Part shown: in pieces, positions 3,880-58,300 of the stretch
Layout: each line of letters opens with the position of its first letter
How positions within the stretch are numbered: the first letter of the stretch is position 1
Assembly: GCF_009931435.1 (NCBI RefSeq)
Contig: NZ_CP043414.1
DNA from: Escherichia coli
Lineage (GTDB): Bacteria > Pseudomonadota > Gammaproteobacteria > Enterobacterales > Enterobacteriaceae
Direction: 5' to 3' (one strand)
Length of the DNA: 64,000 nt
The notes under the pieces: generated by a model
What the model saw: the letters and a program-made list of their open reading frames with translations, nothing else
What the model was told of the DNA's origin: nothing
Database searches by the model: none
Made by a program: the position numbers and the translations under genes

Positions 3880-4079
3880 TCATCATTCCCACAATGGCTG
3901 GCTAATTGTCAGCCATTTTTTCAACTCTCTCAAAATTTGCGATTTTTGAGAGAGTTTTAGTTATCTCTGTAATCCTTGCCCGTAAATTCGTGATAGCCGT
4001 CGTAAAGCTATCACCAGCTGGCGAAGATTTCGCCAGTCACGTCTACCCTTGTTATACCTCACACCGCAAGGAGACGATC

Positions 4080-5618
4080 ATGACCAACAATCCCCCTTCA
4101 GCACAGATTAAGCCCGGCGAGTATGGCTTCCCCCTCAAGTTAAAAGCCCGCTATGACAACTTTATTGGCGGCGAATGGGTCGCGCCCGCCGACGGCGAGT
4201 ATTACCAGAACCTGACGCCGGTGACCGGGCAGCTACTGTGCGAAGTGGCGTCTTCGGGTAAACGAGATATCGATCTGGCGCTGGATGCTGCGCATAAAGT
4301 GAAAGATAAATGGGCGCATACTTCGGTGCAGGATCGCGCGGCGATTCTGTTTAAGATTGCCGATCGAATGGAGCAGAACCTCGAACTTTTAGCGACGGCT
4401 GAAACCTGGGATAACGGCAAACCCATTCGCGAAACCAGTGCTGCTGATGTGCCGCTGGCGATTGACCATTTTCGCTATTTTGCCTCGTGTATTCGGGCGC
4501 AGGAAGGTGGGATCAGTGAAGTTGATAGCGAAACTGTGGCTTATCACTTCCACGAACCGTTAGGCGTGGTGGGGCAGATTATCCCGTGGAACTTCCCGCT
4601 GCTGATGGCGAGCTGGAAAATGGCACCCGCGCTGGCGGCGGGCAACTGCGTGGTGCTGAAACCCGCACGACTCACTCCGCTTTCCGTTCTGCTGCTAATG
4701 GAAATTGTCGGTGATTTACTGCCGCCGGGCGTGGTGAACGTGGTCAACGGTGCGGGCGGAGAAATTGGCGAATATCTGGCGACCTCGAAACGCATCGCCA
4801 AAGTGGCGTTTACCGGCTCAACGGAAGTGGGCCAACAAATTATGCAATACGCTACGCAAAACATTATTCCGGTGACGCTGGAGCTGGGCGGCAAATCGCC
4901 AAATATCTTCTTTGCTGATGTGATGGATGAAGAAGATGCCTTTTTCGATAAAGCGCTGGAAGGCTTTGCACTGTTTGCTTTTAACCAGGGCGAAGTTTGC
5001 ACCTGTCCAAGTCGTGCCTTAGTTCAGGAGTCTATCTACGAACGCTTTATGGAGCGCGCCATCCGCCGTGTCGAAAGCATTCGCAGCGGTAACCCGCTCG
5101 ATAGCGTGACGCAAATGGGGGCGCAGGTTTCTCACGGGCAATTGGAAACCATCCTTAACTACATTGATATTGGTAAAAAAGAGGGCGCAGACGTGCTCAC
5201 CGGCGGGCGGCGCAAGCTGCTGGAAGGCGAACTGAAAGACGGCTACTACCTCGAACCGACGATTCTGTTTGGTCAGAATAATATGCGCGTGTTCCAGGAA
5301 GAAATTTTTGGTCCGGTGCTGGCGGTAACCACCTTCAAAACGATGGAAGAAGCGCTGGAGCTGGCGAACGACACGCAATATGGCCTGGGCGCGGGTGTCT
5401 GGAGCCGCAACGGTAATCTGGCCTATAAGATGGGGCGCGGTATTCAGGCAGGGCGCGTGTGGACCAACTGTTATCACGCTTACCCGGCACATGCGGCGTT
5501 TGGTGGCTACAAACAATCAGGCATTGGCCGCGAAACCCACAAAATGATGCTTGAGCATTACCAGCAAACCAAGTGCCTGCTGGTGAGCTACTCGGATAAA
5601 CCGTTGGGGCTGTTCTGA
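4080..5618 (+). CDS. aldB: NADP-dependent aldehyde dehydrogenase
   Basis: 512-aa product from ATG at 4080 (the track ORF extends upstream in frame); preceded by AAGGAG; ALDH catalytic motifs ([16 protein letters not shown]). Confidence 0.9.
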
Positions 5619-5627
5619 TGTAAGAAG

Positions 5628-5664
5628 CTGGTCGCATCGGGTATTCATTGCCTGATGCGACGCT
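5628..5664. repeat. REP-like palindromic element / aldB terminator hairpin
   Basis: gtcgcatc...gatgcgac inverted repeat containing the REP consensus-like GCCTGATGCGACGC. Confidence 0.5.
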
Positions 5665-5895
5665 TTCGCGTTTTACCAATTCAAATGTCTACGTCTTGAA
5701 TGACTGAATATTGATTGAACTTAATTACGAGTCTCCTCGCATCTTTTCAACAAGTTACTGCACACCGTTATTCTTCTTCCGAACGGCATTCCTGAGTCAA
5801 CTTTATCCCCCTGACGGCCCATATAAATCGCGCTATCGTGATTGTTATTGCTAAATGTGTGTGTGTCGTGTGTATAATCATGGAAGGGCAGGGAT

Positions 5896-6081
5896 GTGAA
5901 AAGTGCAGACGTGATCGCCATCCTGAAGCAGCATGGCTGGGAACATATTCGAACCCGTGGTAGTCATCATCAGTTCCGCCACCCTGTTCATCCGGGTCTG
6001 GTGACGGTTCCGCACCCTAAAAAAGATATTAAGCCCGGTACGCTGGCGCAAATTGGGCGTCAGGCTGGTTTAACATTTTAA
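5896..6081 (+). CDS. HicA-family mRNA interferase toxin (predicted)
   Basis: 61-aa ORF with GTG start; motif RTRGSHHQFRHP and C-terminal PHPKKDIKPGTLAQIGRQAGL resemble the HicA/YcfA family; 16 nt upstream of a HicB-like ORF; TATAAT at 5873-5878. Confidence 0.6.
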   Translation: MKSADVIAILKQHGWEHIRTRGSHHQFRHPVHPGLVTVPHPKKDIKPGTLAQIGRQAGLTF

Positions 6082-6097
6082 AATTTCAGGAGGCAAT

Positions 6098-6508
6098 ATG
6101 TTTTATCCCGCCTATATCCACAGTGATCCTGACGGCAGCGCCAGCGGTTTTTTCCCTGATGTTCCAGGCTGTTATTTTGCTGGTGATACGCTGGACAACG
6201 CTTTCCAGGATGCGCGAAGTGCACTGGTCGCGCACTTCGAAACCTTATGCGAGATGAATGAAGAGTTGCCGCTTCCAGGCTCTGTGGAAACACATCTGGT
6301 CCAGCGTGCGCAGGACTTTATTGGCGGGCAATGGTTGCTGGTGGATATCAATATGAATCAGTTCGAAGGTCGGGCTGAACGTATCAATATTACGATGCCG
6401 AAAAGATTACTGAACAAGATTGATACCTACGTGCGCAATAACCCAGACTACGCCAACAGAAGTGCGTTTCTGGCGGAAGCTGCCCGGCGTGTATTGCCGG
6501 GCGTTTAA
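6098..6508 (+). CDS. HicB-family antitoxin with C-terminal ribbon-helix-helix domain (predicted)
   Basis: 136-aa ORF; N-terminal HicB-like fold signature (YPAYIHSDPDGSASGFFPDVPGCYFAGDT...ELPLP); C-terminal RHH-like segment INITMPKRLLNKIDTYV...NRSAFLAEAARRVL; SD AGGAGG 6 nt upstream of ATG. Confidence 0.6.
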   Translation: MFYPAYIHSDPDGSASGFFPDVPGCYFAGDTLDNAFQDARSALVAHFETLCEMNEELPLPGSVETHLVQRAQDFIGGQWLLVDINMNQFEGRAERINITMPKRLLNKIDTYVRNNPDYANRSAFLAEAARRVLPGV

Positions 6509-6840
6509 TCTCGCGTTTCGATGGTGAGCGGGCGGACCAGGCTGTACAGCCACAGACCAAAACAAGCGATGGTGCCAATCACCACGGTGAGGAACACACT
6601 GACTGACAGGCCTGCAAGCAATCCCGCAGGCAGGGCCAGCAGGCCGTGGATCACGGTGTCGTTCCATCTCACCTGATCGTAGCCAAACATGCCTAAAACG
6701 CCGCAAACCAGACCGTAAATCACCATTGGTGTTCCGAGGCCAATCAGCAATAAACGGTAGATAATTGAAGGTTTAATACGCTTTATCTGTACTGTGGATG
6801 TTTTACTGGGGTTATTCATTAGTTTGGTCAATAGTTCCAT
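6505..6840 (-). CDS. Hypothetical small inner-membrane protein (two or three predicted TM helices)
   Basis: 111-aa product from ATG at 6840 inside a 127-aa ORF; hydrophobic stretches IIYRLLLIGLGTPMVIYGLVCGVLGMF and LLALPAGLLAGLSVSVFLTVVIGTIACFGLWLY; convergent with the hicB-like gene and overlapping its 3' end by 4 nt. Confidence 0.4.
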   Translation of the reverse strand: MELLTKLMNNPSKTSTVQIKRIKPSIIYRLLLIGLGTPMVIYGLVCGVLGMFGYDQVRWNDTVIHGLLALPAGLLAGLSVSVFLTVVIGTIACFGLWLYSLVRPLTIETRD

Positions 6841-7001
6841 TATTTCAATATGATAAACCTCGACCTGTTGAAAAGCCAGGTAGCACACTTCAGAAAGTAT
6901 ATAAAAAACAATATGTCGTTATATAAATAAGGAAATTGCACTGCATCATGGCATTTCATAATATGCGTTAATTGTTCTTTTTTATATTCTCTGAGGGAAA
7001 T

Positions 7002-7325
7002 ATGTTCCTGGACTATTTTGCACTGGGAGTGCTTATTTTTGTATTTCTGGTGATATTCTATGGGATTATTATTTTACATGATATTCCCTACCTGATTGCT
7101 AAAAAACGTAATCATCCTCATGCCGACGCCATTCATGTTGCTGGTTGGGTGAGTCTTTTTACGCTGCATGTTATCTGGCCATTTTTGTGGATTTGGGCCA
7201 CGCTTTACCGCCCGGAGCGGGGATGGGGAATGCAAAACCATGACTCCTCCGTTGTGCAACTACAACAGCGTATTGCCGGGCTGGAGAAACAGCTCGCCGA
7301 CATCAAATCCTCTTCTGCCGAGTAA
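7002..7325 (+). CDS. yiaW: Small inner-membrane protein (DUF3302 family)
   Basis: 107-aa product from ATG at 7002 with GAGGGAAA SD; membrane helices; immediately followed by yiaV. Confidence 0.85.
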
Positions 7326-7330
7326 TACTT

Positions 7331-8467
7331 ATGGATTTACTGATTATTTTGACCTATGTGGCTTTCGCATGGGCAATGTTTAAGATCTTCAAAATTCCTG
7401 TAAATAAATGGACCATTCCCACCGCGGCCCTGGGTGGCATATTTATTGTCAGCGGTCTAATTCTGTTAATGAACTATAACCATCCGTATACCTTTAAAGC
7501 GCAAAAAGCGGTTATTTCTATTCCTGTTGTCCCGCAGGTGACAGGCGTGGTGATCGAAGTGACGGACAAGAAAAATACGCTGATTAAAAAAGGTGAGGTG
7601 CTATTTCGACTGGACCCGACGCGTTATCAGGCGCGGGTGGATCGGCTGATGGCGGATATCGTTACCGCAGAACATAAACAGCGGGCGTTGGGCGCAGAGT
7701 TAGATGAGATGGCGGCGAATACTCAGCAGGCAAAGGCCACGCGGGATAAATTCGCTAAAGAGTACCAGCGTTACGCACGCGGCAGCCAGGCGAAAGTAAA
7801 CCCGTTTTCAGAACGCGATATTGATGTGGCGCGGCAAAATTATCTGGCGCAGGAAGCCTCCGTAAAGTCATCGGCGGCGGAACAAAAACAGATCCAGAGC
7901 CAGCTGGATAGCCTGGTGTTGGGTGAACATTCTCAAATCGCCAGCCTGAAAGCGCAGCTCGCGGAAGCAAAATATAACCTTGAGCAGACGATAGTGCGTG
8001 CGCCGAGCGATGGTTATGTGACCCAAGTGCTGATTCGTCCGGGTACCTATGCCGCATCGCTGCCGCTACGTCCTGTGATGGTGTTTATACCCGATCAGAA
8101 ACGACAAATTGTGGCGCAGTTCCGTCAGAACTCCTTGCTGCGACTGGCTCCCGGCGATGATGCGGAAGTGGTGTTTAATGCTCTGCCAGGTAAGGTATTC
8201 AGCGGTAAGCTGGCAGCCATTAGTCCAGCTGTTCCCGGCGGAGCTTATCAGTCGACCGGCACCTTACAGACGTTAAACACAGCATCGGGTTCAGATGGCG
8301 TTATCGCGACCATTGAACTGGATGAGCACACTGAGTTGAGCGCTTTACCAGACGGTATTTACGCCCAGGTGGCGGTTTACTCTGATCATTTCAGCCATGT
8401 CTCGGTGATGCGCAAAGTGCTGTTACGCATGACCAGTTGGGTGCATTACCTTTATCTCGATCATTAA
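7331..8467 (+). CDS. yiaV: HlyD/EmrA-type membrane fusion (periplasmic adaptor) protein
   Basis: 378-aa ORF; N-terminal TM anchor, long coiled-coil region, C-terminal beta-barrel typical of membrane fusion proteins. Confidence 0.85.
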
Positions 8468-9438
8468 TCTTCGCTTTCCGCCGCTTGTTCAGGCCGCAGT
8501 TGCTGCGACTGAGCAAGCTGGTGGCGAATTTCACGCAGCATTTCATCCAGCACATACTGGACCCGCCAGGGCTGGTATTCCCGTTTACGGAAGATAGCCA
8601 CCAGATCCAGCCACCATTCATACGGTTGCTGAAAGCAGGGCACCAGCGTGCCGTCTTGCAGGTCGCTCTGCACACTTTTGTCTGGCGCAAACACAATCCC
8701 CAGGTGATTTCGTGCCAGCTCCAGCGCCGATTGCGTGTTGTCGCAAACGTAATTTCCCTTCACGCGATAATCCCGCACCTCTTTACTCCCGGCGACGTTG
8801 AAGCGCCAGATATTCGCGTCGTCGATCATCATCGAGTCGATCAAAATACAGGAGTGATGTTCGAGTTCGTCAGGACGGCTAATGGGATGTTTCGCAAGAT
8901 AGCGCTGACTGGCATAAGCGGTTACGGCATATTGCGTAATAAAACTGGCAACCAGCGATTCATCTTTTGGTGGAGCATAGCTGATTAAAACATCACAATC
9001 ATCGGGAAATTCGACACCTTCATAAAAGGCATTACGCTCAAGATTGCAGGTTTTTAGCGATAAGGTGATATCACCGATATCTTTAATTTTATCGATAACA
9101 TGTTTGGATAAATAGGTAATTATGCCGGTTGGGGCGTAGATGGTGACCCGACCACGTTTCTCATGCTTATAATCTGCAATAAAATTATTAAGTTGCTCGT
9201 TTCTGTCCAGCATGTCGTTGATGTACGGTAACAGCGCGGTACCAAAAGGTGTGAGCATCAGCTGCCGGGTGGTTCGGTCAAAGACTTTTAAACCTACTTT
9301 TGATTCAAAATCAGCAAGATATTTGCTGACGTTGGCCTGTGCGAATCCAAGTACAGTCGCGGCATGGCTGATATTTTCACTGGCAGCGATTACCGAGATA
9401 ATTTTTAACTCCCGGTACTTAAGTTGTAATTTTGTCAT
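8464..9438 (-). CDS. yiaU: LysR-family transcriptional regulator
   Basis: 324-aa ORF; N-terminal HTH ([19 protein letters not shown]) and LysR substrate-binding domain; divergent from yiaT. Confidence 0.85.
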
Positions 9439-9561
9439 CGCAACAGCCCAATTATATATAATTTTATATATTACTATATAAATATGAATCTTGCACCGGA
9501 GAAATTGTAAGCATTATTATGCCGACTCTTTTTTATCTTATTTTAAAATGGAATACCGGAC

Positions 9562-10302
9562 ATGTTAATTAACCGCAATATTGTGGCGTTATTTACGTTG
9601 CCTTTTATGGCAAGCGCAACTGCTTCTGAATTATCCATTGGTGCTGGTGCAGCTTATAATGAATCGCCTTATCGTGGTTATAATGAAAATACAAAGGCAA
9701 TTCCGCTGATTAGTTATGAAGGTGATTCATTTTATGTTCGTCAGACCACGTTAGGTTTTATTCTGTCGCAAAGTGAAAAAAATGAACTTAGCCTGACCGC
9801 ATCCTGGATGCCGCTGGAATTTGACCCTGCAGATAATGACGATCATGCCATGCAACAGCTTGATAAGCGTGATAGTACGGCTATGGCGGGGGTTGCCTGG
9901 TATCACCACGAGCGTTGGGGAACCGTGAAAGCCTCTGCGGCTGCGGACGTTCTGGATAACAGCAACGGCTGGGTGGGGGAGCTATCGGTATTTCACAAAA
10001 TGCAGATAGGTCGCCTGTCGCTGACACCTGCACTGGGCGTTCTCTATTATGACGAGAATTTCAGTGACTATTACTATGGCATTTCAGAGAGTGAGTCCCG
10101 TCGTAGCGGTCTGGCAAGTTATTCCGCGCAGGATGCCTGGGTGCCCTATGTCAGCCTGACGGCAAAATACCCGATAGGAGAGCACATCGTATTGATGGCG
10201 AGTGCCGGATACAGCGAGCTGCCGGAAGAGATTACCGACAGCCCGATGATTGATCGTAATGAGAGTTTTACCTTTGTCACCGGCGTGAGCTGGCGTTTTT
10301 AA
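9562..10302 (+). CDS. yiaT: MipA/OmpV-family outer membrane protein
   Basis: 246-aa ORF with signal peptide (ALFTLPFMASATA) and C-terminal aromatic residue typical of OM beta-barrels. Confidence 0.85.
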   Translation: MLINRNIVALFTLPFMASATASELSIGAGAAYNESPYRGYNENTKAIPLISYEGDSFYVRQTTLGFILSQSEKNELSLTASWMPLEFDPADNDDHAMQQLDKRDSTAMAGVAWYHHERWGTVKASAAADVLDNSNGWVGELSVFHKMQIGRLSLTPALGVLYYDENFSDYYYGISESESRRSGLASYSAQDAWVPYVSLTAKYPIGEHIVLMASAGYSELPEEITDSPMIDRNESFTFVTGVSWRF

Positions 10303-10349
10303 TTTACCGGTGGATGTCGGTGCGGCTGGCCTACGCTCTCGCACTGACC

Positions 10350-10437
10350 TTCAGGCTTGATAAGACGCGTTAAGCGTCGCATCAGGCAATGTGCACCCTA
10401 CGTTGGATGCGGCGCGAGCGCCTTATCCAACCTACGG
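10350..10437. repeat. REP/BIME palindromic repeat cluster
   Basis: Tandem REP-like units (GATAAGACGCGTTAAGCGTCGCATCAGGC; GGATGCGGCGCGAGCGCCTTATCC) between yiaT and the GH127-like gene. Confidence 0.6.
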
Positions 10438-12402
10438 ATGGCAATGCTTTTCCTCATTCACCCAGATCCGCATTTCGCCTTCACCCCGGTTGGCCCAGCT
10501 AAACCACGGGATAAACGTCAGAGTTTGCGGCTGGCGTTTGGCTGGCGCACTATCGTAATGCCACAGCTGTTGCTGCTCTGGATTGCTCTGTTCATACCGG
10601 TAACCCGGTGCCTGGATTAAGATCTTATGGTGGAACAATCCATTACCTTCAAATGTCGTAAATAGCGCATCGGCGGGCAGCCACAGGTTATGCAGTGACT
10701 CGCCGTTGTCGGCCTGTTCCAGGCAATACACCAGCGGGCCGCGCTGAATCGCCACTTTTCCGGCGACGTGACGCACCAGCGGGTTACCGTAAACGCGACG
10801 TACCGGCATTGGCAAAGTCAGATTCAGCGTGTCGCCCTCCTGCCATTCGCGGGTAATGTGCAAATACCCTTTACGAATATCCTGCTCGACCTCTTCCCCA
10901 TTCAATGTAATCTGCGGCTGTGTGCACCAGTCCGGCAGACGTAAAGCCAGCGTATGACGCACCGGCTGGGGCGATTCAACCGCAATTGTCACCTGTTCCT
11001 GCCACGGATAGTTTCCGCTAACCCGCAGACGCAGCGTGCCATTTTCTACCGGCACTTCCATGCTGTTTCCTGCGTAGATGTTGATATACAACGCATCTTC
11101 ACGCGGCGTGTAGAGATAATGACCAATCGAGGTTAGCACACGGGCGATATTTGGCGGACAACAAGCGCAACCAAACCAACGCTGGCGGATCGGCTTAACG
11201 TGATCGTAGATATGGTTGAATTTCAGCGATTTTGGATGTACTTCCAGCGGATTCACATAGAAGAAATGTTTGCCATCCAGCGCCATGCCGCCGAGCACGG
11301 TGTTGTACAGTGCGCGCTCCATCACATCGGCATATTGACTGTCGCCTTCCATTTCCAGCATTCGCCGGGCGAACATCATCAGACCGATGGAAGCACAGCT
11401 TTCGGCGTATACCGTGTCATTCGGCAGATCGTAATCGCTGCTGAACGCTTCGCCGCTGCTTTGTGAGCCAATGCCGCCGGTAATATATAACTGACGCTGG
11501 GCCATATTGTTCCACAGCCGCAGGCAGTCCTGACGCTTGCTTTCATCGTGACTTAAACGCGCGAGATGCGCGACGCCGGTCATCAGGTAGACAAAACGTA
11601 CCGCGTGACCAATGGCGGTTTGCTGCTGTGCGATGGGCAAATGTGCCTGGCTGTAGGCTTTGTCTTTCACCATCCACGCCGGGCCGTAGGTGTGCCAGTG
11701 CGAGGTCTGCCCGCGCTTTTCATATTCCTGGTCGTAATAGTGCGGTTGCGCACCACGCTGTTCGACAAAATAGTGGGTCAGCGCCAGGTAGCGCGGCTCT
11801 TCGGTCACTTCATACAGGCGCATTAGTGCCAGTTCAATTTCCGGGTGACCAGGATAACCGTGTAACTTACTTTCACCTGGACCAAATACGCTGTCGATAT
11901 GATCGGCCAGACGGCAAACCACTTCCAGCAAGCGCCGCTTGCCCGTGGCCTGGAAGAAGGCGACTCCGGCTTCAATCAGATGACCGGCGCAGTAAAGTTC
12001 ATGACACTCCGCCAGATTGCTCCAGCGTTCTTCGGGCGCTTTTACCGTAAAGTAAGTATTGAGATAGCCATCTTCGCACTGGGCGGAAGCGACCAGTTCG
12101 ATTACCTCGTCAGCAGTTTTTTCCAGTTCGGCATCCGGCTTCTGGCACAGCGACCAGGCTACCGCTTCCAGCCATTTGGCGACGTCGCTGTCCTGAAACA
12201 CCATCCCGTAAAATTCACCGTCTTGCAGTCCTGCGGCAATGCGAAAGTTTTCAATCGCATGGCTGGGTTCCGCTTCTGGGATACGATCGTTCAAGGCATC
12301 CCACTGATAAGGAATCACCACGTCGCGGACCAGTTGTTGGTACTGACCGAGGAACGGATCGCTGACCGTCAGTTTATGCAGATCGACTTCCGAAATGTTC
12401 AT
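10432..12402 (-). CDS. Glycoside hydrolase family 127 (DUF1680, beta-L-arabinofuranosidase-like) protein, cytoplasmic
   Basis: 656-aa product from ATG at 12402, preceded by AAGGAG with 6-nt spacer; no signal peptide; E-x-C (AESCAS) and C-x-CC (FGCACCPPN) motifs consistent with the Zn/Cys active site described for GH127 HypBA1. Confidence 0.75.
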   Translation of the reverse strand: MNISEVDLHKLTVSDPFLGQYQQLVRDVVIPYQWDALNDRIPEAEPSHAIENFRIAAGLQDGEFYGMVFQDSDVAKWLEAVAWSLCQKPDAELEKTADEVIELVASAQCEDGYLNTYFTVKAPEERWSNLAECHELYCAGHLIEAGVAFFQATGKRRLLEVVCRLADHIDSVFGPGESKLHGYPGHPEIELALMRLYEVTEEPRYLALTHYFVEQRGAQPHYYDQEYEKRGQTSHWHTYGPAWMVKDKAYSQAHLPIAQQQTAIGHAVRFVYLMTGVAHLARLSHDESKRQDCLRLWNNMAQRQLYITGGIGSQSSGEAFSSDYDLPNDTVYAESCASIGLMMFARRMLEMEGDSQYADVMERALYNTVLGGMALDGKHFFYVNPLEVHPKSLKFNHIYDHVKPIRQRWFGCACCPPNIARVLTSIGHYLYTPREDALYINIYAGNSMEVPVENGTLRLRVSGNYPWQEQVTIAVESPQPVRHTLALRLPDWCTQPQITLNGEEVEQDIRKGYLHITREWQEGDTLNLTLPMPVRRVYGNPLVRHVAGKVAIQRGPLVYCLEQADNGESLHNLWLPADALFTTFEGNGLFHHKILIQAPGYRYEQSNPEQQQLWHYDSAPAKRQPQTLTFIPWFSWANRGEGEMRIWVNEEKHCHP

Positions 12403-12412
12403 CTTGTGCTCC

Positions 12413-13813
12413 TTAAGGCTGTACATGACGCTGACGCAGGTCGCTAGCAATGCGTGACATCATAGGGTTATTGAGTTTGCAAAAGCGGATCGCCATCGCC
12501 AGCAGCAGGTGGAACAGCGCAGGCAGCAATGTTTCCATCGCCGCGATCCCGCCAAGCGAACTGGCGGTCTGGTTTTCCACGCCTGGCTGGTAGGCGACAA
12601 AAATAAACAGCAGGCTGATGATCCCGGCGCTGGAGGCCCAGGCCAGCTTGATGAAAAACAGATTGAAGGCGAAGTTCATGCCGGAAGAACGTACGCGGGT
12701 TTTCCACTCGCCGTAGTCATCGGCAAAGGCCATCAATGAGAAGTGCAATGGCAATGTGAAGCCAAGAATCACGCCATTACCAAGGATCACCGCCAGCCAC
12801 AGCGTTTGATAAGCCGGGCCAGAAGGCAGGAACCACATCAACACCGCCAGCGCGGCGAGGAGCAGGTTGGTGTAGTAGTAAATTTTGACGGTATCGAAAC
12901 GTCGCGTTAACGGGCTGACAATCACCGAGCCGATAATGGAGGCGAAGGTGACCATAGTGAAGAACAGCGACGTGTAGCCCGTACTGCCTTGTAAGACGTA
13001 GGTAATGAAGTACATATACCCACCGCCGCGAATATTAAAGACGTTAATCAGCAGGAAAGACATGACCAGCATCAGCAGCAGTTGGTCGTTGTTTCGCAGC
13101 CCGGCAAGATGTTCGCGCAGGGTAAATTTCCCCATTGTGGAGAGTGGCACCCGTTCACGAACCCAGAAGAAACAGCACAGGAACATCACCACAGCGATGG
13201 CGCACAGCACGCCGACGCCCAGTTGATAGCCGCGCGCGGCATTACCCTGACCGAAGAGATCTACCATCCACGGCAGGCCAACCGAAACCAGAAATCCCGC
13301 TACGCCGCAGAGAACGAATCGCCAGGACTGGCAGGAGATCACTTCATTGTGGCGGGTGGTCATGGTGTTGATCAGCGCGCAGTACGGCACGTTGATGGCG
13401 GTATAACCGACTGAAAGGAGCAGGTAAGTGCCGAACGCCCAGGCGATTTTTACTCCCATGCTGGCATCTGGCACGGTGAACGTCAGGATGCCGATAATGC
13501 CGATGGGAATGGCAATCCACAACTGCCACGGACGAAAGCGCCCCCAGCGACTTTGCGTCCGGTCGGCAATGACGCCCATCACCGGGTCGGAGATGGCATC
13601 AAACACGCGCAGTGCAATAAACAGCGTGCCGACCAGCGCCGGAGTTAAGCCAAAAACGTCGGTGTAGAAAAAGGTGAGAAAGTTCATGATCAGGCAAGTT
13701 ATTACGGTGCCGCCTGCGTCACCCAGGCCGTAGCCTATTTTTTCCCGTACAGATAACGCATCGTCAATTTTACCTTTAGCGATATCAGCGGTAGTAATCG
13801 GTGTAGAGGTCAT
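12413..13813 (-). CDS. GPH-family (MFS superfamily) glycoside/cation symporter
   Basis: 466-aa ORF; about 12 hydrophobic helices; N-terminal region with conserved Asp (GYGLGDAGG...[18 protein letters not shown]) typical of MelB/YicJ-like transporters; stop lies 10 nt upstream of the GH127 start. Confidence 0.75.
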
Positions 13814-14038
13814 AGATATTCCTCGTGCATAGGGAGCAATTTTTAGTTTTATTGAAATGACATGATTAATTCTGCCGTGAACGGGAATATCAACAAGGCG
13901 AGAAAAGAGTAAAAAAAGGTGACGATTCCGACCTGAATTTAAAAGTGTGAATTGGATCAGGTGAAATTAATGTTTTTGATTAATAATCAAAAGGTAATGT
14001 GTTTAATCATTAATGAATAAGCGGGAAATTACATATCA

Positions 14039-14854
14039 ATGCTCGAATTATCCATGACGTTACCGATTAAAGTGCAAAATGGTGGATTATTTATTTCCCG
14101 TGGCGTAGGGAGGCATCCTGCAAGGCGGCTGGAGTCATGGGAAATTATCTTTGTCGAAAAAGGTCGATTAACGATTCAGGAAGAAGAGCAGATATTTCAG
14201 GTTGATGCGGGAGAGAGTTTATTGCTCTGGCCGAAACGTCAGCACGTTGGTGTTGAGGATTTCCCCGCTGACCTTAAATTTTACTGGCTACATTTTGAGG
14301 TTAAAGCGCCGGACAACGATCCGCGCTGGCTCACTCATCTTAGCGTGCCGCAGCACACCAAAGTCGCCGACCCTCAGGCGTTGAGTGCACTGTTTCGCCA
14401 GTTTTTAAGCGAGCAGGAAAAACATCAGCGTAGCCCTGCGCTGGAGTTTATTGTGTTGTTGATTTTACAGCAGCTTACCTTCGACGTACGTCTTGATGAA
14501 CAAGCCGATACTGCAGGCACCGCCCTTGCCTGGAAAGCACAAAAGCTGATCCGCACGCAATATCATCGCCCGCTTTCTACGGCAATTTTGGCCCGCGAGC
14601 TCTACTGTAATGCCGATTATCTTGGGCGCGTGTATCGTCGGGTATTTCGTTTGACGTTGACAGAAGCTATCCATCGCCAAAGAGTGCGCGAAGCCGAAAA
14701 GCTGTTAATTAGCGAAGCGCGATCGCTCACGGAAGTGGCGGCGTTGTGCGGGTTTAATGACGTTGGCTATTTCCGACAGATTTTTCGCAAACACACCGGT
14801 TTAACGCCAGCTGCGTGGAAGCGACGTTACAGTAAGGAACATATCAATTCGTAG
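14039..14854 (+). CDS. AraC/XylS-family transcriptional regulator
   Basis: 271-aa ORF; N-terminal cupin-like sugar-binding domain, C-terminal double HTH (LTEVAALCGFNDVGYFRQIFRKHTGLTPAAWKRRY); divergent from the transporter gene. Confidence 0.8.
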   Translation: MLELSMTLPIKVQNGGLFISRGVGRHPARRLESWEIIFVEKGRLTIQEEEQIFQVDAGESLLLWPKRQHVGVEDFPADLKFYWLHFEVKAPDNDPRWLTHLSVPQHTKVADPQALSALFRQFLSEQEKHQRSPALEFIVLLILQQLTFDVRLDEQADTAGTALAWKAQKLIRTQYHRPLSTAILARELYCNADYLGRVYRRVFRLTLTEAIHRQRVREAEKLLISEARSLTEVAALCGFNDVGYFRQIFRKHTGLTPAAWKRRYSKEHINS

Positions 14855-14856
14855 TG

Positions 14857-14876
14857 CCGGGGCAATGAAGCCCCGG
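14857..14876. terminator. Hairpin between convergent AraC-type gene and sgbE (possible bidirectional terminator)
   Basis: ccgggg-caatgaag-ccccgg stem-loop; no clear T-run. Confidence 0.3.
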
Positions 14877-14885
14877 TCTGAGAGA

Positions 14886-15581
14886 TTACTGCCCGTAATA
14901 GGCATTGGCCCCATGCTTACGCAGGTAATGCTTATCCAGAAGTTCGTTTTGCATCGCAGGAAGCTGCGGCGCAAGCTGGCGCGAGAACAGGCCCATATAG
15001 GCGCACTCTTCGAGTACCACGGCATTATGCACCGCATCGGCGGCGTTATTGCCCCAGGCGAACGGACCGTGAGAATGCACCAATACCGCCGGGATTTGTG
15101 CCGGACTCCTGCCGCGTTCTTCGAAAGTTTCAATGATCACTTCGCCGGTCTGATATTCATATTCGCCGTTAATCTCCGCTGCGGTCATCTGTCGCGTGCA
15201 GGGGATTGCGCCATAGAAATAATCGGCGTGCGTAGTGCCCCAGGCAGGGAGATCCAGCCCGGCCTGTGACCAGATGGTGGCGTGGCGCGAGTGGGTATGC
15301 ACAATGCCACCGATTTCGGCATAGCGACGGTAAAGCGCCAGATGCGTTGGCGTATCGGACGAGGGCTTTTTGCTACCTTCCACCACCTTGCCGCTGGCTA
15401 TCTCAACCACCACCATATCGTCGGCGGTCATCACGTCGTACTCGACGCCGGAAGGCTTAATTACCATCCATTGCCGCGTCTCGTCTACCGCACTGACATT
15501 GCCCCAGGTAAACGTCACCAGATGGTGAGCGGGAAGCGCCAGATTTGCCGCCAGTACGTCGGCTTTCAATCGCTCTAACAT
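14886..15581 (-). CDS. sgbE: L-ribulose-5-phosphate 4-epimerase
   Basis: 231-aa ORF, class II aldolase/epimerase (AraD-like); last gene of the yiaK-sgbE operon. Confidence 0.9.
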
Positions 15582-24590: not shown

Positions 24591-24690
24591 GCCGGATGCG
24601 GCTTAAACGCCTTATCCGGCCTACAAATTATTCCAAATTCAATATATTGCAGAAATGATGTAGGCCTGAAAAGCGTAGCGCATCAGGCAA
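24591..24690. repeat. REP/BIME element
   Basis: GCCGGATGCGGCTTAAACGCCTTATCCGGCCTACA ... GTAGGCCTGAAAAGCGTAGCGCATCAGGC palindromic units between ysaA and avtA. Confidence 0.6.
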
Positions 24691-43288: not shown

Positions 43289-43566
43289 TCGCTAAATAAT
43301 AGAGCAACCTTTAATAATCTTCTGATGAATAAAGATTGTCTCATATATTAATTTTATGAGATTTTTTTAGGATTATATCAAGGAGAAGAAACGAACTTAT
43401 TAAGCTAGAATAGCTGCGGGTGCTTGAGACTGTTTGTCTCAGGTATTCACCGAAAGGCAGACAGAGAAAAGCCCCACCTGACTATAAATCAAAGTGAGGC
43501 TACCCTATGCCTGAACACCATAAGGTTAGCCTCTTACTCGTTGGAAATCAACACAGGAGGCTGGGA

Positions 43567-43719
43567 ATGCCGCAGAAATATAGATTACTTTCTTTAATAG
43601 TGATTTGTTGCACGCTTTTATTTTTCACCTGGATGATAAGAGATTCACTGTGTGAATTGCATATTAAACAGGGGAGTTATGAGCTGGCGGCATTTTTAGC
43701 CTGCAATTTGAAAGAGTAA
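43567..43719 (+). CDS. hokA: Hok-family small membrane toxin (type I toxin-antitoxin)
   Basis: 50-aa ORF MPQKYRLLSLIVICCTLLFFTWMIRDSLCELHIKQGSYELAAFLACNLKE; strong SD AGGAGG; an in-frame upstream ATG at 43507 is treated as not the start. Confidence 0.85.
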   Translation: MPQKYRLLSLIVICCTLLFFTWMIRDSLCELHIKQGSYELAAFLACNLKE

Positions 43720-43907
43720 GAGTCTTCGGCGGGAAGTTATTCCCGCCTTTCTTACGGCGTTGCGCATTCTCATTGCACCCAAATTTATTCTTCACAAAAA
43801 TAATAATAGATTTTATTACGCGAACGATTATTTATTTCCTGAATAAACAAATAAAAAAATCCCCGCCATTTGGCAGGGATCTTAGATTCTGTGCTTTTAA
43901 GCAGAGA

Positions 43908-44120
43908 TTACAGGCTGGTTACGTTACCAGCTGCCGGGCCTTTAGCGCCGCTTTCGATGGTGAAGGACACTTTCTGACCTTCGTCCAGAGATTTGTAACC
44001 ATCGTTCTGGATAGCAGAGAAGTGTACGAACACGTCTTTAGAGCCATCGTCAGGAGTGATGAAGCCGAAGCCTTTGTCAGCGTTGAACCATTTTACGATA
44101 CCAGTCATTTTACCGGACAT
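43908..44120 (-). CDS. cspA: Major cold shock protein
   Basis: 70-aa [24 protein letters not shown]... with RNP1/RNP2 motifs. Confidence 0.97.
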
Positions 44121-44279
44121 AGTGTATTACCTTTAATAATTTAAATGTGCCTTTCGGCGATATGGCGTGCTTTACAGATTTTGAAGCGTTAAAGGAAATG
44201 CACTACGAGGGGTATCAACGATAACTCTTGAAGGGACTTGCCTTACTACACTGCTTTAATGGTCTGTACGTCAAACCGT
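44121..44279 (-). promoter_or_regulatory. cspA long 5' untranslated leader (cold-box / thermosensing region) with promoter immediately upstream
   Basis: About 160-nt leader upstream of the cspA ATG; extent assigned from established knowledge of cspA, not derived from the sequence alone. Confidence 0.6.
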
Positions 44280-44400
44280 TGATGTGCATTAAGCCACGCA
44301 TTGGCGGGTGATGCAACAATTATTTTTCATATTTATGATTAATCGGTTGGAAAACGGTCCTGTCATCAGGACCGTAAACAGAAATAAAGTGGATAAAAGT

Positions 44401-55476: not shown

Positions 55477-55553
<77 letters not shown>

Positions 55554-55562
55554 AATTCGAAA

Positions 55563-55589
55563 AGCCTGCTCAGCGAGCAGGCTTTTTTG
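55563..55589 (+). terminator. Rho-independent terminator after proK
   Basis: agcctgctc-agc-gagcaggct hairpin followed by a T6 run. Confidence 0.75.
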
Positions 55590-55603
55590 CATTTGAAGCC
55601 CAT

Positions 55604-55889
55604 GAGGATGAGAACCTCCGGGGGCGGGGAGGTTCGACTCGAGCGAAGCGAGAGAACGTTGCGCCAGCAACGGCCCGCAGGGCGAGCCACGAAGTGGCGA
55701 GTAATCCTCTATCACCGACCAATTTAGAAAAACCAGCCTACGGGCTGGTTTTTTGCTTTCTGCGGCCTGAAGAGGATGAGAACTTCCGGGGGCAGGGAGG
55801 TTCGACTCCAGCAAAGCGAGAGAACGCTGCGTCAGCAACGGCCCGCAGGGCGAGCCACGCAGTGGCGAGTAATCCTCTGGCACCGACCA
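55604..55889 (+). repeat. Two tandem 118-nt repeat units (168-nt period), each ending with a copy of the tRNA-Pro 3' end
   Basis: Units 55604-55721 and 55772-55889 are about 92% identical by eye; each ends AGTAATCCTCT(A/G)(T/G)CACCGACCA; second terminator-like hairpin at 55733-55754 between units. Confidence 0.7.
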
Positions 55890-55898
55890 AATCTGAAC

Positions 55899-55985
55899 GT
55901 AGGCCTGATAAGACGCGTTAGCGCCGCATCAGGCAACGGCACCGCACTTATTGTCGGATGCGGCGTGAACGCCTTATCTGACCGA
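55899..55985. repeat. REP/BIME element
   Basis: AGGCCTGATAAGACGCGTTAGCGCCGCATCAGGC ... GGATGCGGCGTGAACGCCTTATC. Confidence 0.6.
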
Positions 55986-56520
55986 CACACCACATATTTC
56001 CCTGCCAAATTTGCGCCCCACATCTCACTATCCATTAACGGATTTGTGACAGAATCCATTGTCTTTTTTTATATTTGCTTAAATCTTTTTTTGCGTTACT
56101 TATGGCTGGCGCTGGCATTTTCCGCTGTGCGTTTTAGCGTTCATGGTATTAATCGCTCAGATATCCATCTTTTCCTCAGATTTTTTTCATTAAATGCATA
56201 AAACTTAATCACCAAATGTTGCTAAATATTAAGCTGATTGTTCTGGTTATGTTGGCGTAGCACAAATTTCTCTGCTGCAAATAGCTGTTTGAAGTTTTTT
56301 TAATCTTTGTTTGCGGATTCTCACCGTTGGTGTAAATCCCGGTTGGCTGTATTGACGTTTTCACATTCTGTTGACAGATTGTAGGTCACGAGGGGCATTT
56401 TATGGAGGATCCGCACTGTTACACTGATGTTAATTAGTACGGCATCCCCACCTCATAACGTTGACCCGACCGGGTAAAAAACAAAAAAGGTCAGGCAGCG
56501 ACAACCCACTGCAAAGGGTT

Positions 56521-58195: not shown

Positions 58196-58300
<105 letters not shown>

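Follow-up and report, generated by a model that had tools for sequence, protein, structure and literature searches.

A REP array between yiaT and the GH127 gene of Escherichia coli: a site of recurrent structural junctions beside an ancestral gene block

In the Escherichia coli DNA analyzed here (64,000 nucleotides of contig NZ_CP043414.1, assembly GCF_009931435.1; hereafter "the window"), yiaT and GH127 converge on a spacer that contains what is very probably a common BIME-2-type REP array as known from enterobacteria, comprising one full y-S-z unit together with a decayed z unit and a long linker, a level of confidence that applies to this explanation as a whole. A survey of junction classes shows that structural junctions recur at the array in E. 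coli, most of them affecting the neighbour on the yiaT side. The array constitutes the fixed right edge of a hypervariable segment, its left neighbour being yiaT, hicB or an aldB-proximal BIME in E. coli and yiiG in E. whittamii. The GH127-MFS-AraC block on its other side is ancestral at the locus and is not an inserted cassette, and the array belongs to the 3' end of this block.

That REP/BIME elements exist, occur between convergent genes and vary among strains is textbook knowledge, and the present results are of little importance beyond correct annotation. The correction is that GH127-MFS-AraC represents an ancestral enterobacterial block which was lost by deletion in K-12 and in about half of E. 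coli. The segment that varies in this region lies leftward of the REP array. Being joined to at least four different neighbours, the array is a convenient locus for testing REP-promoted rearrangement, and the placement of the GH127 stop codon in a REP foot, with its three natural stop variants, is cheap to follow up. Nothing relevant was found in the literature on the yiaT/sgbE/GH127 locus.

Architecture of the yiaT-GH127 spacer

The features of the locus, with coordinates given with respect to the window, are as follows.

5650-5677, plus strand: truncated y-type REP just 3' of the aldB stop, at the left junction of the hicAB module in the window
9562-10302, plus strand: yiaT, MipA/OmpV family outer-membrane protein, left convergent gene (Pfam MipA, E = 1e-52; ORF list; RefSeq annotation of near-identical loci)
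10280-10303, plus strand: weak terminator-like hairpin and T-run overlapping the yiaT stop, a 5-bp stem CCGGC/GCTGG followed by CGTTTTTAAT (a pattern match only, from the consensus scan)
From 10300-10302 to 10432-10434: yiaT-GH127 spacer, from the yiaT stop TAA to the GH127 stop (minus strand), with two REP units inside
~10307-10334: REP0, decayed z-type unit ending in a CCTAC foot, CCGGTGGATGTCGGTGCGGCTGGCCTAC
10335-10350: long linker between REP0 and REP2, GCTCTCGCACTGACCT, with the hicB-type junction at its left edge
10351-10387, plus strand: REP2, y-type, tcaGGCTTGATAAGACGCGTTAAGCGTCGCATCAGGC
10385-10391, plus strand: left copy of the 7-nt direct repeat GGCAATG, which with the right copy brackets the S linker and REP3
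10388-10401: S-type linker of 14 nt, AATGTGCACCCTAC, aligned to the naRNA4 linker and the yjjV BIME linker ATTGTGCGCCAACT
10402-10435, minus strand: REP3, z-type, inverse to REP2, GTTGGATGCGGCGCGAGCGCCTTATCCAACCTAC
10432-12402, minus strand: GH127 (beta-L-arabinofuranosidase-like), right convergent gene (Pfam GH127 catalytic, middle and C-terminal domains)
10440-10446, plus strand: right copy of GGCAATG
12413-13813, minus strand: MFS_2 sugar transporter of the GH127 block (ORF list, Pfam)
14039-14854, plus strand: AraC-family regulator of the GH127 block (ORF list, Pfam)
14857-14879: non-REP, G+C-rich hairpin of 8 bp between AraC and sgbE, -18.7 kcal/mol

The original prediction had placed a composite REP element at 10350-10437, between the yiaT stop and the 3' end of GH127, and this fits the REP units at 10351-10435 to within 2 nt. 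Its two units are correct, while the cluster is larger than had been noted, with REP0 and the long linker (~10307-10350) as additional parts. REP0 and the linker at 10335-10350 align with the intact z unit and the long linker that are present in the yjjV BIME of K-12 and at the corresponding locus of E. whittamii and Escherichia sp. E1V33; the whole spacer is therefore organized as z(decayed)-linker-y-S-z. REP0 and the following linker fold into a hairpin of -20.4 kcal/mol, and both the unit and its hairpin start 5-9 nt past the yiaT stop. The spacer contains no REP units other than REP0, REP2 and REP3, and the consensus scan retrieved no canonical intrinsic terminator inside it, the weak one at the yiaT stop being the sole candidate.

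The foot of REP2 reads TCAG in the window instead of GTAG, which is intact in GPEC464 and replaced by GTAT in O157/BL21, these strains likewise possessing the array, and its stem is slightly degraded by one change, this copy being in decay and not obviously maintained. REP3 contains internal mismatches and retains its GTAG foot (minus strand, 10435-10432), while its stem carries a compensatory change from GGCCGG/CCGGCC to GGTTGG/CCAACC with respect to the family consensus.

The GH127 stop codon TAG (10432-10434, minus strand) is situated in this GTAG foot, as indicated by the ORF list, the RefSeq annotation and the translation, on which grounds a candidate stop at a TCA around 10454 was rejected. 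Comparison of GH127 tails across classes and genera revealed that the last five codons (KHCHP) and the stop are specific to Escherichia and reach into REP3. In some GH127 alleles the stop is mutated and translation continues for three codons into the REP3 stem, up to a TAA; three natural variants of the C-terminus and stop thus exist, namely TAG in the foot, read-through to TAA in the CTCC allele, and absence of REP3, in which case the gene ends in REP2.

Assignment to the REP family

Both units are members of the REP family by sequence, structure and genomic dispersal. A degenerate REP consensus search, in which up to three mismatches were permitted, matched 10351-10387 and none of 100 shuffled sequences, and a looser core pattern retrieved the cores of both REP2 and REP3 with no substitutions. 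The same looser pattern identified REP sites elsewhere in the window at 5654, 24595-24673, 29328, 55899-55986 and 58213-58291, so that at least five other REP sites are present within these 64 kb. The Rfam model naRNA4 (RF02564), which describes the z2-linker-y unit of REP325, matches 10354-10432 on the minus strand over its full length (model positions 1-77 of 77) with 67.8 bits (E = 7e-10 over the entire window), the gathering score being 59.5, and has a second match at 55902-55983.

With free energies of -14.7 to -23 kcal/mol and z-scores between -3.7 and -5.7, the REP units form stable hairpins on either strand, at most one of 200 shuffles folding as stably; REP2 reaches -19.1 kcal/mol on the plus strand and -14.7 on the minus strand, and REP3 -23 kcal/mol on the minus strand. 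When the 150-nt spacer was compared by megablast, it matched other REP sites at a median of two and a maximum of seven places per E. coli genome, the nearest paralogue exhibiting 83% identity. The array lies between the stops of the convergent genes yiaT and GH127, bar the 4 nt by which REP3 overlaps the GH127 stop.

Junction classes among E. coli genomes

Population classes were assigned by means of junction probes (coverage of at least 80%) across 5426 complete E. coli genomes, and the resulting class counts represent genomes rather than independent events counted on a phylogeny. Six junction types account for 5254 of the 5426 genomes:

yiaT-array-GH127, the arrangement of the window: 1253 genomes
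K-12 type: 2461 genomes for junction 1 and 2461 for junction 2
aldB-BIME-REP3-GH127: 567 genomes
hicB-REP2-REP3-GH127: 136 genomes
hicB-REP2-GH127, without the z unit REP3: 356 genomes
aldB-hairpin-sgbE, with nothing else between aldB and sgbE: 481 genomes

The four classes carrying the GH127-MFS-AraC cassette total 2312 genomes, as compared to 2310 genomes in which 80% or more of the 6.3-kb query is covered. The cassette is missing from K-12 and from approximately 54% of complete E. coli genomes, and nearly half of E. coli genomes are without this copy of the array. Because both K-12 junction probes retrieved 2461 genomes, no intermediate with a single K-12 deletion was detected among the 5426 genomes; K-12-type strains represent one ancient haplotype with two deletions, in which the array was lost together with most of the cassette. 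In 1059 genomes the cassette is kept and hicB or aldB replaces yiaT, the join being located inside the array or at its edge. Most array-associated breaks are of this nature, in that they swap the yiaT-side neighbour (yiaWVUT, hicAB, aldB or yiiG) while the cassette stays.

Anatomy of the junctions

Several independent junctions are located inside the array or within approximately 25 nt of 10350-10437. The view of the REP cluster as a site of breakpoints is to this extent supported, the left end of the K-12 deletion and the hicB, aldB, REP3 and yiiG junctions all being found there.

In K-12, the two deletions span 10330-10539 and 10730-14750 and remove both REPs; a 190-nt piece of GH127 (approximately 88% identity) and the 3' end of AraC remain. 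Of the four endpoints, a single one (10329/10330, in REP0) is in the array, the other three being within the GH127 and AraC genes. The junction displays a 6-nt GGCTGG microhomology. Its placement at a TnpAREP cleavage site, between CC and T, was considered and rejected, as it is 2 nt off and the microhomology fits as well or better.

The hicB junction is located at ~10326-10337, since hicB-type genomes in the alignment share GCACCGAC...GTAGGCCTGATAAG with yiaT-type genomes and diverge leftward. The BLAST breakpoints of the hicB and aldB types (10354/10359) were rejected at face value following alignment with other yiaT-type genomes, as the divergent REP2 foot of the window itself renders them misleading. 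The aldB-BIME junction coincides with the REP2 3' end (~10380-10388), the join at the REP 3' end being that of CGCATCCGGC directly to AATGTGCACC. The hicAB module begins inside the aldB-side REP, at ~5675, and this REP is intact and within a complete BIME in K-12, L007 and L005. The S linker and REP3 form a discrete 55-nt presence/absence unit, bounded by the GGCAATG copies at 10385 and 10440, and the 356 genomes without REP3 contain a single, diverged copy of this repeat.

The y unit also occurs in E. whittamii and Escherichia sp. E1V33, where it is joined to the 3' end of yiiG, and it consequently predates E. coli. The join in E. whittamii combines two REPs from loci that belong to different chromosomal neighbourhoods in E. 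coli. Other genera possess REP-type palindromes of their own in the corresponding spacer.

Endpoints also occur away from the array. Those of the aldB-sgbE type are approximately 3.8 kb and 4.4 kb from it, and L008 diverges after TAGTGCCG, in the 5' arm of the hairpin at 14857-14879, which is the endpoint of a yiaK-sgbE operon deletion in some strains. At no junction was a long stretch of REP-REP identity present, overlaps being 6-9 nt or absent. Direct repeats around the 3.8-kb hyp-yiaWVUT block (6534-10353) were sought by aligning the sequences downstream of hicB and yiaT, and the weak alignment obtained (score of 23, as compared to 15.4 +/- 3.0 for shuffles, 14 of 500 of which equalled it) is not solid.

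Origin of the junction pile-up

The palindromes and their similarity to other REPs may favour slippage and REP-REP or microhomology-mediated recombination at the array, a DNA role to which we assign roughly even odds. Recombination-prone REPs, combined with the tolerance of breaks in a spacer between gene 3' ends, would then generate the observed pile-up of junctions. In two of the largest loss classes most endpoints fall outside the array, an observation that counts against the favoured explanation.

A passive spacer, in which the REPs are uninvolved and in which both breaks and REPs accumulate where they are harmless, is the foremost competing explanation, possible though clearly less probable than not. 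Since a break in a spacer flanked by two gene 3' ends does no damage, a survivorship effect alone could account for the way junctions cluster. Such an effect is consistent with the other endpoints located just past stops or in non-REP hairpins (the aldB-sgbE type, and L008 at 14857-14879), with junction overlaps that are short (6-7 nt) or absent, and with the REP carried by ~30% of convergent E. coli gene pairs regardless, such pairs also being more highly expressed (bioRxiv 10.64898/2026.03.23.713779). It is less easily reconciled with the junctions that fall within REP units, these being the aldB-type join, the hicAB start at ~5675 and the REP-REP join of E. whittamii, nor does it explain the three K-12 endpoints inside genes, which imply that selection did not confine breaks to spacers.

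An active TnpAREP/RAYT transposase that cut and rejoined these REPs, thereby causing the gain or loss of REP3 and the exchange of neighbours, appears improbable. In vitro, REPs that combine a 5' GTAG foot with a mismatch in the stem are bound by TnpAREP, which cuts between CC and T next to the inverse REP as well as within linkers and carries out strand exchange (PMC3333891). The intact GTAG foot of REP3 on the minus strand and the discrete 55-nt unit formed by REP3 and the S linker would suit such an activity; the 7-nt direct repeat that brackets this unit, however, fits slippage too, REP2 is without GTAG in the window, and the K-12 junction is 2 nt from the predicted site (between GGCC and TAC) and carries a GGCTGG microhomology typical of slippage. 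To our knowledge, E. coli REPs have not been shown to move in vivo, which further counts against an active transposase.

Ancestry of the GH127-MFS-AraC block

The original prediction regarded the array as a possible mark of where an accessory cassette had been gained or lost. Among species representatives, 68 enterobacterial species other than E. coli have AraC-MFS-GH127 between sgbE and yiaT/aldB, with aldB within 8 kb in 43 of these, yiaT adjacent in 20 and sgbE adjoining AraC in 24. The block occupies the aldB/yiaT...sgbE neighbourhood in Citrobacter, Enterobacter, Lelliottia, Klebsiella, Salmonella diarizonae and others, and the gene order sgbU-sgbE-AraC-MFS-GH127-yiaT/hicB/aldB recurs in many other genera. 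The block is therefore ancestral, and the proposed gain of an accessory cassette is contradicted.

The loss part of the proposal stands for a single K-12 endpoint (10329/10330) and fails for the other three, which are in genes, the REPs themselves having been deleted. Breakpoint mapping had been set beforehand as the test, and the 481 genomes of the aldB-sgbE class, with endpoints ~3.8 and ~4.4 kb from the array, provide the distant breakpoints named in advance as evidence against it. The accompanying statement that the sgbE side has no comparable repeat is accurate, the 8-bp hairpin at 14857-14879 being the only structure there and no REP being present.

A REP/BIME that is the scar or boundary of a GH127-MFS-AraC cassette, either inserted between yiaT and sgbE or cleanly excised at the REP, is thus very improbable and already largely refuted, even though the cassette is absent from K-12 and many other genomes and one K-12 deletion endpoint is in the decayed leftmost REP unit. 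Besides the conserved gene order and the kilobase-distant endpoints of the aldB-sgbE class, the GH127 and AraC remnants inside K-12 indicate deletion and never an empty site; no clean empty site for the block was found. Neither an integrase, a transposase nor a target duplication flanks the block, no integrase or transposase is present within it, and its sgbE end is without a REP or repeat.

Possible roles of the array

REPs have been described as terminators, mRNA stabilisers and sites for IHF, PolI and gyrase (PMC3333891), while the context dependence of their behaviour has been stressed (bioRxiv 10.64898/2026.03.23.713779). Judging from how the family behaves, a joint RNA role appears somewhat better than an even proposition, according to which both convergent transcripts would end in REP hairpins that may block 3' exonucleases and partially stop transcription in both directions, and REP3, because it starts at the GH127 stop codon, would probably also slow the termination of GH127 translation.

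A more far-reaching combination, in which the array is an active recombination substrate that repeatedly replaces the left neighbour of the GH127 block and in which REP3 tunes GH127 output, is unlikely. REP-REP exchange, by homologous recombination, gyrase or TnpAREP, would then supply the left neighbour, whether yiaT, hicB or the aldB BIME or, as in E. whittamii/E1V33, the distant locus of yiiG, this last case implying large-scale rearrangement. REP3 on the GH127 stop would tune output via stalling at termination, and the natural alleles (TAG, read-through to TAA and REP3-less) would differ in level. If true, the locus would offer a compact natural system in which to test REP-driven variation of genome and expression.

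That the REP pair encodes a functional naRNA4-like, nucleoid-associated small RNA acting with HU in chromosome organisation, as the full-length Rfam match above the gathering score could suggest for a family defined from REP325 (PMC4550694), is the least credible of the explanations, given that the model in effect fits any y-S-z2 BIME unit (including the second match at 55902-55983), that REP325/naRNA4 has been described as a local 3'UTR element with no measurable nucleoid compaction (bioRxiv 10.64898/2026.03.23.713779) and that so many E. coli genomes are without this copy.

Comparison with known systems

The array matches E. coli REP/PU sequences of the y and z types, ~34-nt imperfect palindromes of the forms GCCTGATGCGACGC...GCGTCTTATCAGGC (y) and GCCGGATGCGGCG...CGCCTTATCCGGCCTAC (z), and is likewise extragenic, with many dispersed copies and stable hairpins on both strands. 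It differs from them in the TCAG foot and single stem change of REP2, in the paired CC-to-TT and GG-to-AA substitutions of REP3, and in the 4-nt overlap of REP3 with the GH127 stop, owing to which it is not strictly extragenic.

With BIME-2 elements (alternating y and z2 units with a short S linker and with s/l/r linkers at the flanks, e.g. the yjjV BIME and REP325) the array shares the order z-long linker-y-S-z; its 14-nt S linker resembles that of the yjjV BIME, and the REP325-derived Rfam model fits over its full length, the z2 label of REP3 being taken from this fit and the yjjV parallel rather than from an independent separation of z1 and z2. Like BIME loci, which are polymorphic between strains, including in unit number (PMC3333891), the array varies in the number of its units. 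A typical BIME-2 is a multi-unit tandem, whereas the array comprises approximately 1.5 units, the first of which is decayed.

BIME-1/RIP elements (y and z1 units with an L linker of ~35 nt and an IHF site) also contain two inverse REPs, but the linker of the array is 14 nt in length, G+C-rich and devoid of an IHF-like motif, and the array is therefore not a BIME-1. In the 567 aldB-type genomes the array adjoins a BIME-1-like element whose long linker (TGCAATATATTGAATTTGCA) is AT-rich, an L-like linker having been seen in the aldB-side element of L005 only.

Similar to REPIN/RAYT systems, in which a REP-associated tyrosine transposase mobilises inverted REP doublets, the array is an inverted doublet with a short spacer, and REP3 still has the GTAG foot required by TnpAREP in vitro (PMC3333891). 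It differs in displaying no sign of recent copying, the nearest paralogue being 83% identical, and in having junctions that look like slippage or microhomology.

Finally, the array is comparable to the stop-proximal REPs studied by Liang, Rudd and Deutscher in 2015, who reportedly observed that REPs located no more than ~15 nt from a stop codon lower translation via ribosome stalling and tmRNA tagging. In the predicted folding, the REP3 hairpin starts at the GH127 stop and pairs with it, and REP0 with its hairpin, 5-9 nt past the stop of yiaT, may be a second candidate of this kind.

Identity and structure of the REP array

Gene assignments were taken from the window gene calls and from the RefSeq annotation of near-identical loci. 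The array, i.e. the REP/BIME spacer between the yiaT and GH127 stops, lies within the following neighbourhood.

Features of the aldB-sgbE region and, last, further Rfam gathering-level matches in the window
3906-5618: aldB
5650-5677: truncated REP on the aldB side
about 5895-6508: hicA/hicB
between hicB and yiaW, - strand: small ORF
yiaW, yiaV, yiaU and yiaT in series: yiaT at 9562-10302, + strand
yiaT-GH127 spacer: 129 nt
10432-12402, - strand: GH127 gene
12413-13813, - strand: MFS transporter gene
14039-14854, + strand: AraC-family regulator gene
14857-14879: hairpin between AraC and sgbE
14886-15581, - strand: sgbE
24625-24667 and 58219-58261: two REP-associated ES036 matches
43418-43569, + strand: sok antitoxin RNA
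43853-44280, - strand: cspA thermoregulator
55477-55889: tRNA followed by two RtT repeats
55902-55983: second naRNA4-type BIME unit

In the window the spacer reads TAA-tttaCCGGTGGATGTCGGTGCGGCTGGCCTAC-GCTCTCGCACTGACCT-tcaGGCTTGATAAGACGCGTTAAGCGTCGCATCAGGC-AATGTGCACCCTAC-GTTGGATGCGGCGCGAGCGCCTTATCCAACCTAC. The two REPs at the cluster of the original prediction are genuine, as consensus, core pattern, naRNA4 model and hairpin folding all agree. The y-type unit at 10351-10387 (named REP2) was matched by a degenerate REP consensus which matched 0 of 100 shuffles, while REP2 and the oppositely oriented z-type unit REP3 (10402-10435, following a 14-nt S linker) were both matched without substitution by a core pattern that also recovers REPs at five other window sites. 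The Rfam naRNA4 model, derived from the REP325 z2-linker-y unit, matched 10354-10432 (- strand) end to end, scoring 67.8 bits (gathering score 59.5), and its stems differ from the model by compensatory changes (GGCCGG/CCGGCC to GGUUGG/CCAACC). Folding yielded a strong hairpin from each REP unit on either strand, and the + strand fold of the whole spacer surpassed 200 of 200 shuffles (z = -3.6). An extra hairpin at 10311-10353 corresponds, by comparison with the K-12 yjjV BIME and the Escherichia whittamii locus, to a decayed z unit with a long linker, which makes the spacer as a whole BIME-2-like, with the order z-linker-y-S-z. At the sgbE side, sequence comparison and folding revealed a short hairpin only, as had been predicted.

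The array and the end of the GH127 reading frame

The GH127 coding sequence ends at 10432-10434, its TAG stop belonging to the GTAG foot of REP3 (10432-10435). C-terminal tails were compared between the window, L003, L004, L093, L011 (Escherichia sp. E1V33) and L012 (E. whittamii). The protein of other genera ends in ...WVNE(E/L/R), at least five residues earlier, while E. coli with the window arrangement (class A, see below) carries five additional residues, KHCHP, with the stop in the REP3 foot. In alleles with CTCC for CTAC (BL21, class D) translation extends by three codons within the REP3 stem and stops at a TAA (KHCHPEVG*), in class E the tail is ...EETSA with a TGA within REP2, and in E. 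whittamii and E1V33 it is NRRHP(QVG)*. The array therefore sets the end of the reading frame. In the predicted fold, the REP3 hairpin starts at the GH127 stop codon and pairs with it. Liang, Rudd and Deutscher reportedly observed in 2015 that REPs located no more than about 15 nt from a stop codon cause ribosome stalling and tmRNA tagging; by analogy, we infer that such stalling may apply to GH127.

The GH127-MFS-AraC block is an old resident

When one genome per bacterial species was scanned, AraC-MFS-GH127 was present in 68 species other than E. coli, among them members of Citrobacter, Enterobacter, Lelliottia, Leclercia, Klebsiella, Kluyvera and Pseudocitrobacter, as well as Salmonella enterica subsp. 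diarizonae. Within these 68 species, aldB lies at most 8 kb from the GH127 3' end in 43, GH127 is directly adjoined by yiaT in 20 and by hicB in 6, and sgbE adjoins AraC in 24. This synteny shows that the block has long resided between aldB and sgbE and is not an inserted cassette; the proposal that the array marks the boundary of a gained cassette is not supported.

In other genera the yiaT-GH127 spacer contains genus-specific REP-type palindromes or none, as is usual where REPs turn over. E. whittamii and E1V33 share the y unit, including its GTTAA loop, next to GH127, and the array is therefore older than E. coli. Among the GH127-downstream spacers of loci L013-L089, those of Citrobacter show a clear T-run hairpin as the yiaT terminator (TTTGTCCTCAGGGAGGAGGGCAATTTTTTC) and, after it, a Citrobacter-type REP placed and oriented like REP2 of E. 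coli. In several species of Enterobacter, Lelliottia and Huaxiibacter, a CTCCCTCTCCCGTGGGAGAGGG...GGGGTGAGGG repeat takes its place. In Enterobacter, Lelliottia and Yokenella, hicB directly adjoins GH127 rather than lying between aldB and yiaW.

Structural classes and their breakpoints

Structural classes among 5426 complete E. coli genomes, counted with junction-spanning probes at >=80% coverage
Class A, yiaT-array-GH127 (window arrangement, BL21 and O157 included): 1253 genomes
Class B, K-12 type: 2461 genomes
Class C, aldB-BIME-REP3-GH127: 567 genomes
Class D, hicB-REP2-REP3-GH127: 136 genomes
Class E, hicB-REP2-GH127, without REP3: 356 genomes
Class F, aldB-hairpin-sgbE: 481 genomes

Together the six classes comprise 5254 of the 5426 genomes, the remainder including IS-mediated variants (e.g. 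locus L010); classes A, C, D and E amount to 2312 genomes, consistent with the 2310 in which the 6.3-kb query is covered to 80% or more.

In class B, 10330-10539 and 10730-14750 are absent relative to the window, K-12 retaining 190 nt from within GH127 and ~100 nt at the 3' end of AraC. The first junction shows a 6-nt microhomology (GGCTGG) and its left end falls inside the decayed z unit, directly 5' of the CCTAC foot; the remaining three endpoints are intragenic, and no microhomology was found at the second junction. Both junction probes were present in exactly 2461 genomes, with no one-deletion intermediate detected. The REPs were thus lost together with the genes and are not the bounds of the deletion. 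Compared with each of the intact E. coli alleles examined, the GH127 remnant of K-12 (L001 2425-2614) has only 88-89.5% identity, as against 94-98% for its flanks, a difference suggestive of neutral decay since an old deletion. Class F keeps only a hairpin (window 6478-6503) followed directly by the sgbE stop, its endpoints lying kilobases away from the array.

Classes D and E lack the 3.8-kb hyp-yiaWVUT segment, hicB meeting the array at the left end of the long linker (about 10326-10337). Class E additionally lacks the S linker and REP3, a 55-nt piece flanked in REP3-bearing genomes by GGCAATG at 10385 and 10440. In class C, the aldB-proximal BIME (y, AT-rich long linker, inverse z) is fused through the 3' end of its z unit to AATGTGCACC-REP3, as would be expected of an exchange between two same-orientation REPs, which would delete everything between the aldB-side BIME and REP2; both elements are carried by L007 and K-12. 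The hicAB module of the window likewise starts within the aldB-side REP. In E. whittamii and E1V33 it is the 3' end of yiiG that borders the array, the join falling between an intact z unit and the y unit. In E. coli, yiiG adjoins fdhD-fdoG in a different chromosomal neighbourhood; this z unit is also found after yiiG in some E. coli.

The array is therefore a recurrent junction at which mostly the left-hand neighbour changes, not the cassette. The original prediction stands as regards a structural junction hotspot, since several classes join there; loss of the cassette is mostly not REP-bounded, as across strains the left end of class B maps to the array, and the other three class B endpoints and those of class F map elsewhere.

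Other variation in the neighbourhood

Between aldB and yiaW lies the toxin-antitoxin pair hicA/hicB (module 5650-6533), whose left junction interrupts the y REP on the aldB side at about 5675. Genomes without hicAB (K-12, L007) carry a complete y-linker-z BIME at this site and still share window 6425-6533, including the final ~84 nt of hicB. Some genomes (e.g. L003 3794-4873) have a gene annotated as type I restriction endonuclease between aldB and hicAB, and several lineages (L003, L005, L009) a Fic-family gene between yiaY and aldB. In L008 (strain 33F4, 10455-10600) the entire yiaK-sgbE operon is deleted, AraC being followed by a C-terminal remnant of yiaJ (IclR) and then ysaA, with the breakpoint in the 5' arm of the AraC/sgbE hairpin (about window 14862); roughly 400 genomes are of this type, as extrapolated from 3 among 40 rows sampled at even intervals. 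In E. whittamii (L012 10106-15515) and in L011, where yiiG is linked to GH127 via the REP array, two large genes encoding a TPR protein and an HSP90/HATPase-like protein are located between yiiG and fdhD; presumably this pair has no counterpart in the K-12 order, and it may represent an inserted two-gene island. In L012, sgbE appears absent between sgbU and AraC.

Possible roles of the array

At the DNA level, junctions cluster within and beside REP units. The palindromes and their paralogous similarity may cause this clustering; we put this reading at about even odds against a passive spacer, in which breaks between the 3' ends of two genes are simply tolerated.

At the RNA level, a consensus scan found no canonical intrinsic terminator inside the yiaT-GH127 spacer, and the REP hairpins are therefore its main structured 3' elements. 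Judging from the behaviour of the family, the convergent yiaT and GH127 transcripts would both end in REP hairpins. According to the literature, REPs block 3' exonucleases, terminate transcription partially and in part Rho-dependently, and provide sites for IHF, Pol I and gyrase (PMC3333891). About 30% of E. coli convergent pairs contain REPs, and these pairs show higher expression (bioRxiv 10.64898/2026.03.23.713779).

Comparison with known elements

The window element has the defining features of a REP/PU. It shares the y-S-z layout of BIME-2 but is not multi-unit, and differs from BIME-1 in being without the long IHF linker. It scores above the Rfam threshold for naRNA4, although this model in practice detects any BIME unit of this kind, and the role proposed for naRNA4 in the nucleoid is disputed (bioRxiv 10.64898/2026.03.23.713779). 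BIME loci are described as a major source of E. coli intergenic polymorphism (Bachellier et al. 1997, as cited in PMC3333891), and palindromic units make up 12% of the loci that vary between aligned E. coli genomes (PMC2884548). The array is thus an element of a kind already known, with nothing outside known behaviour.
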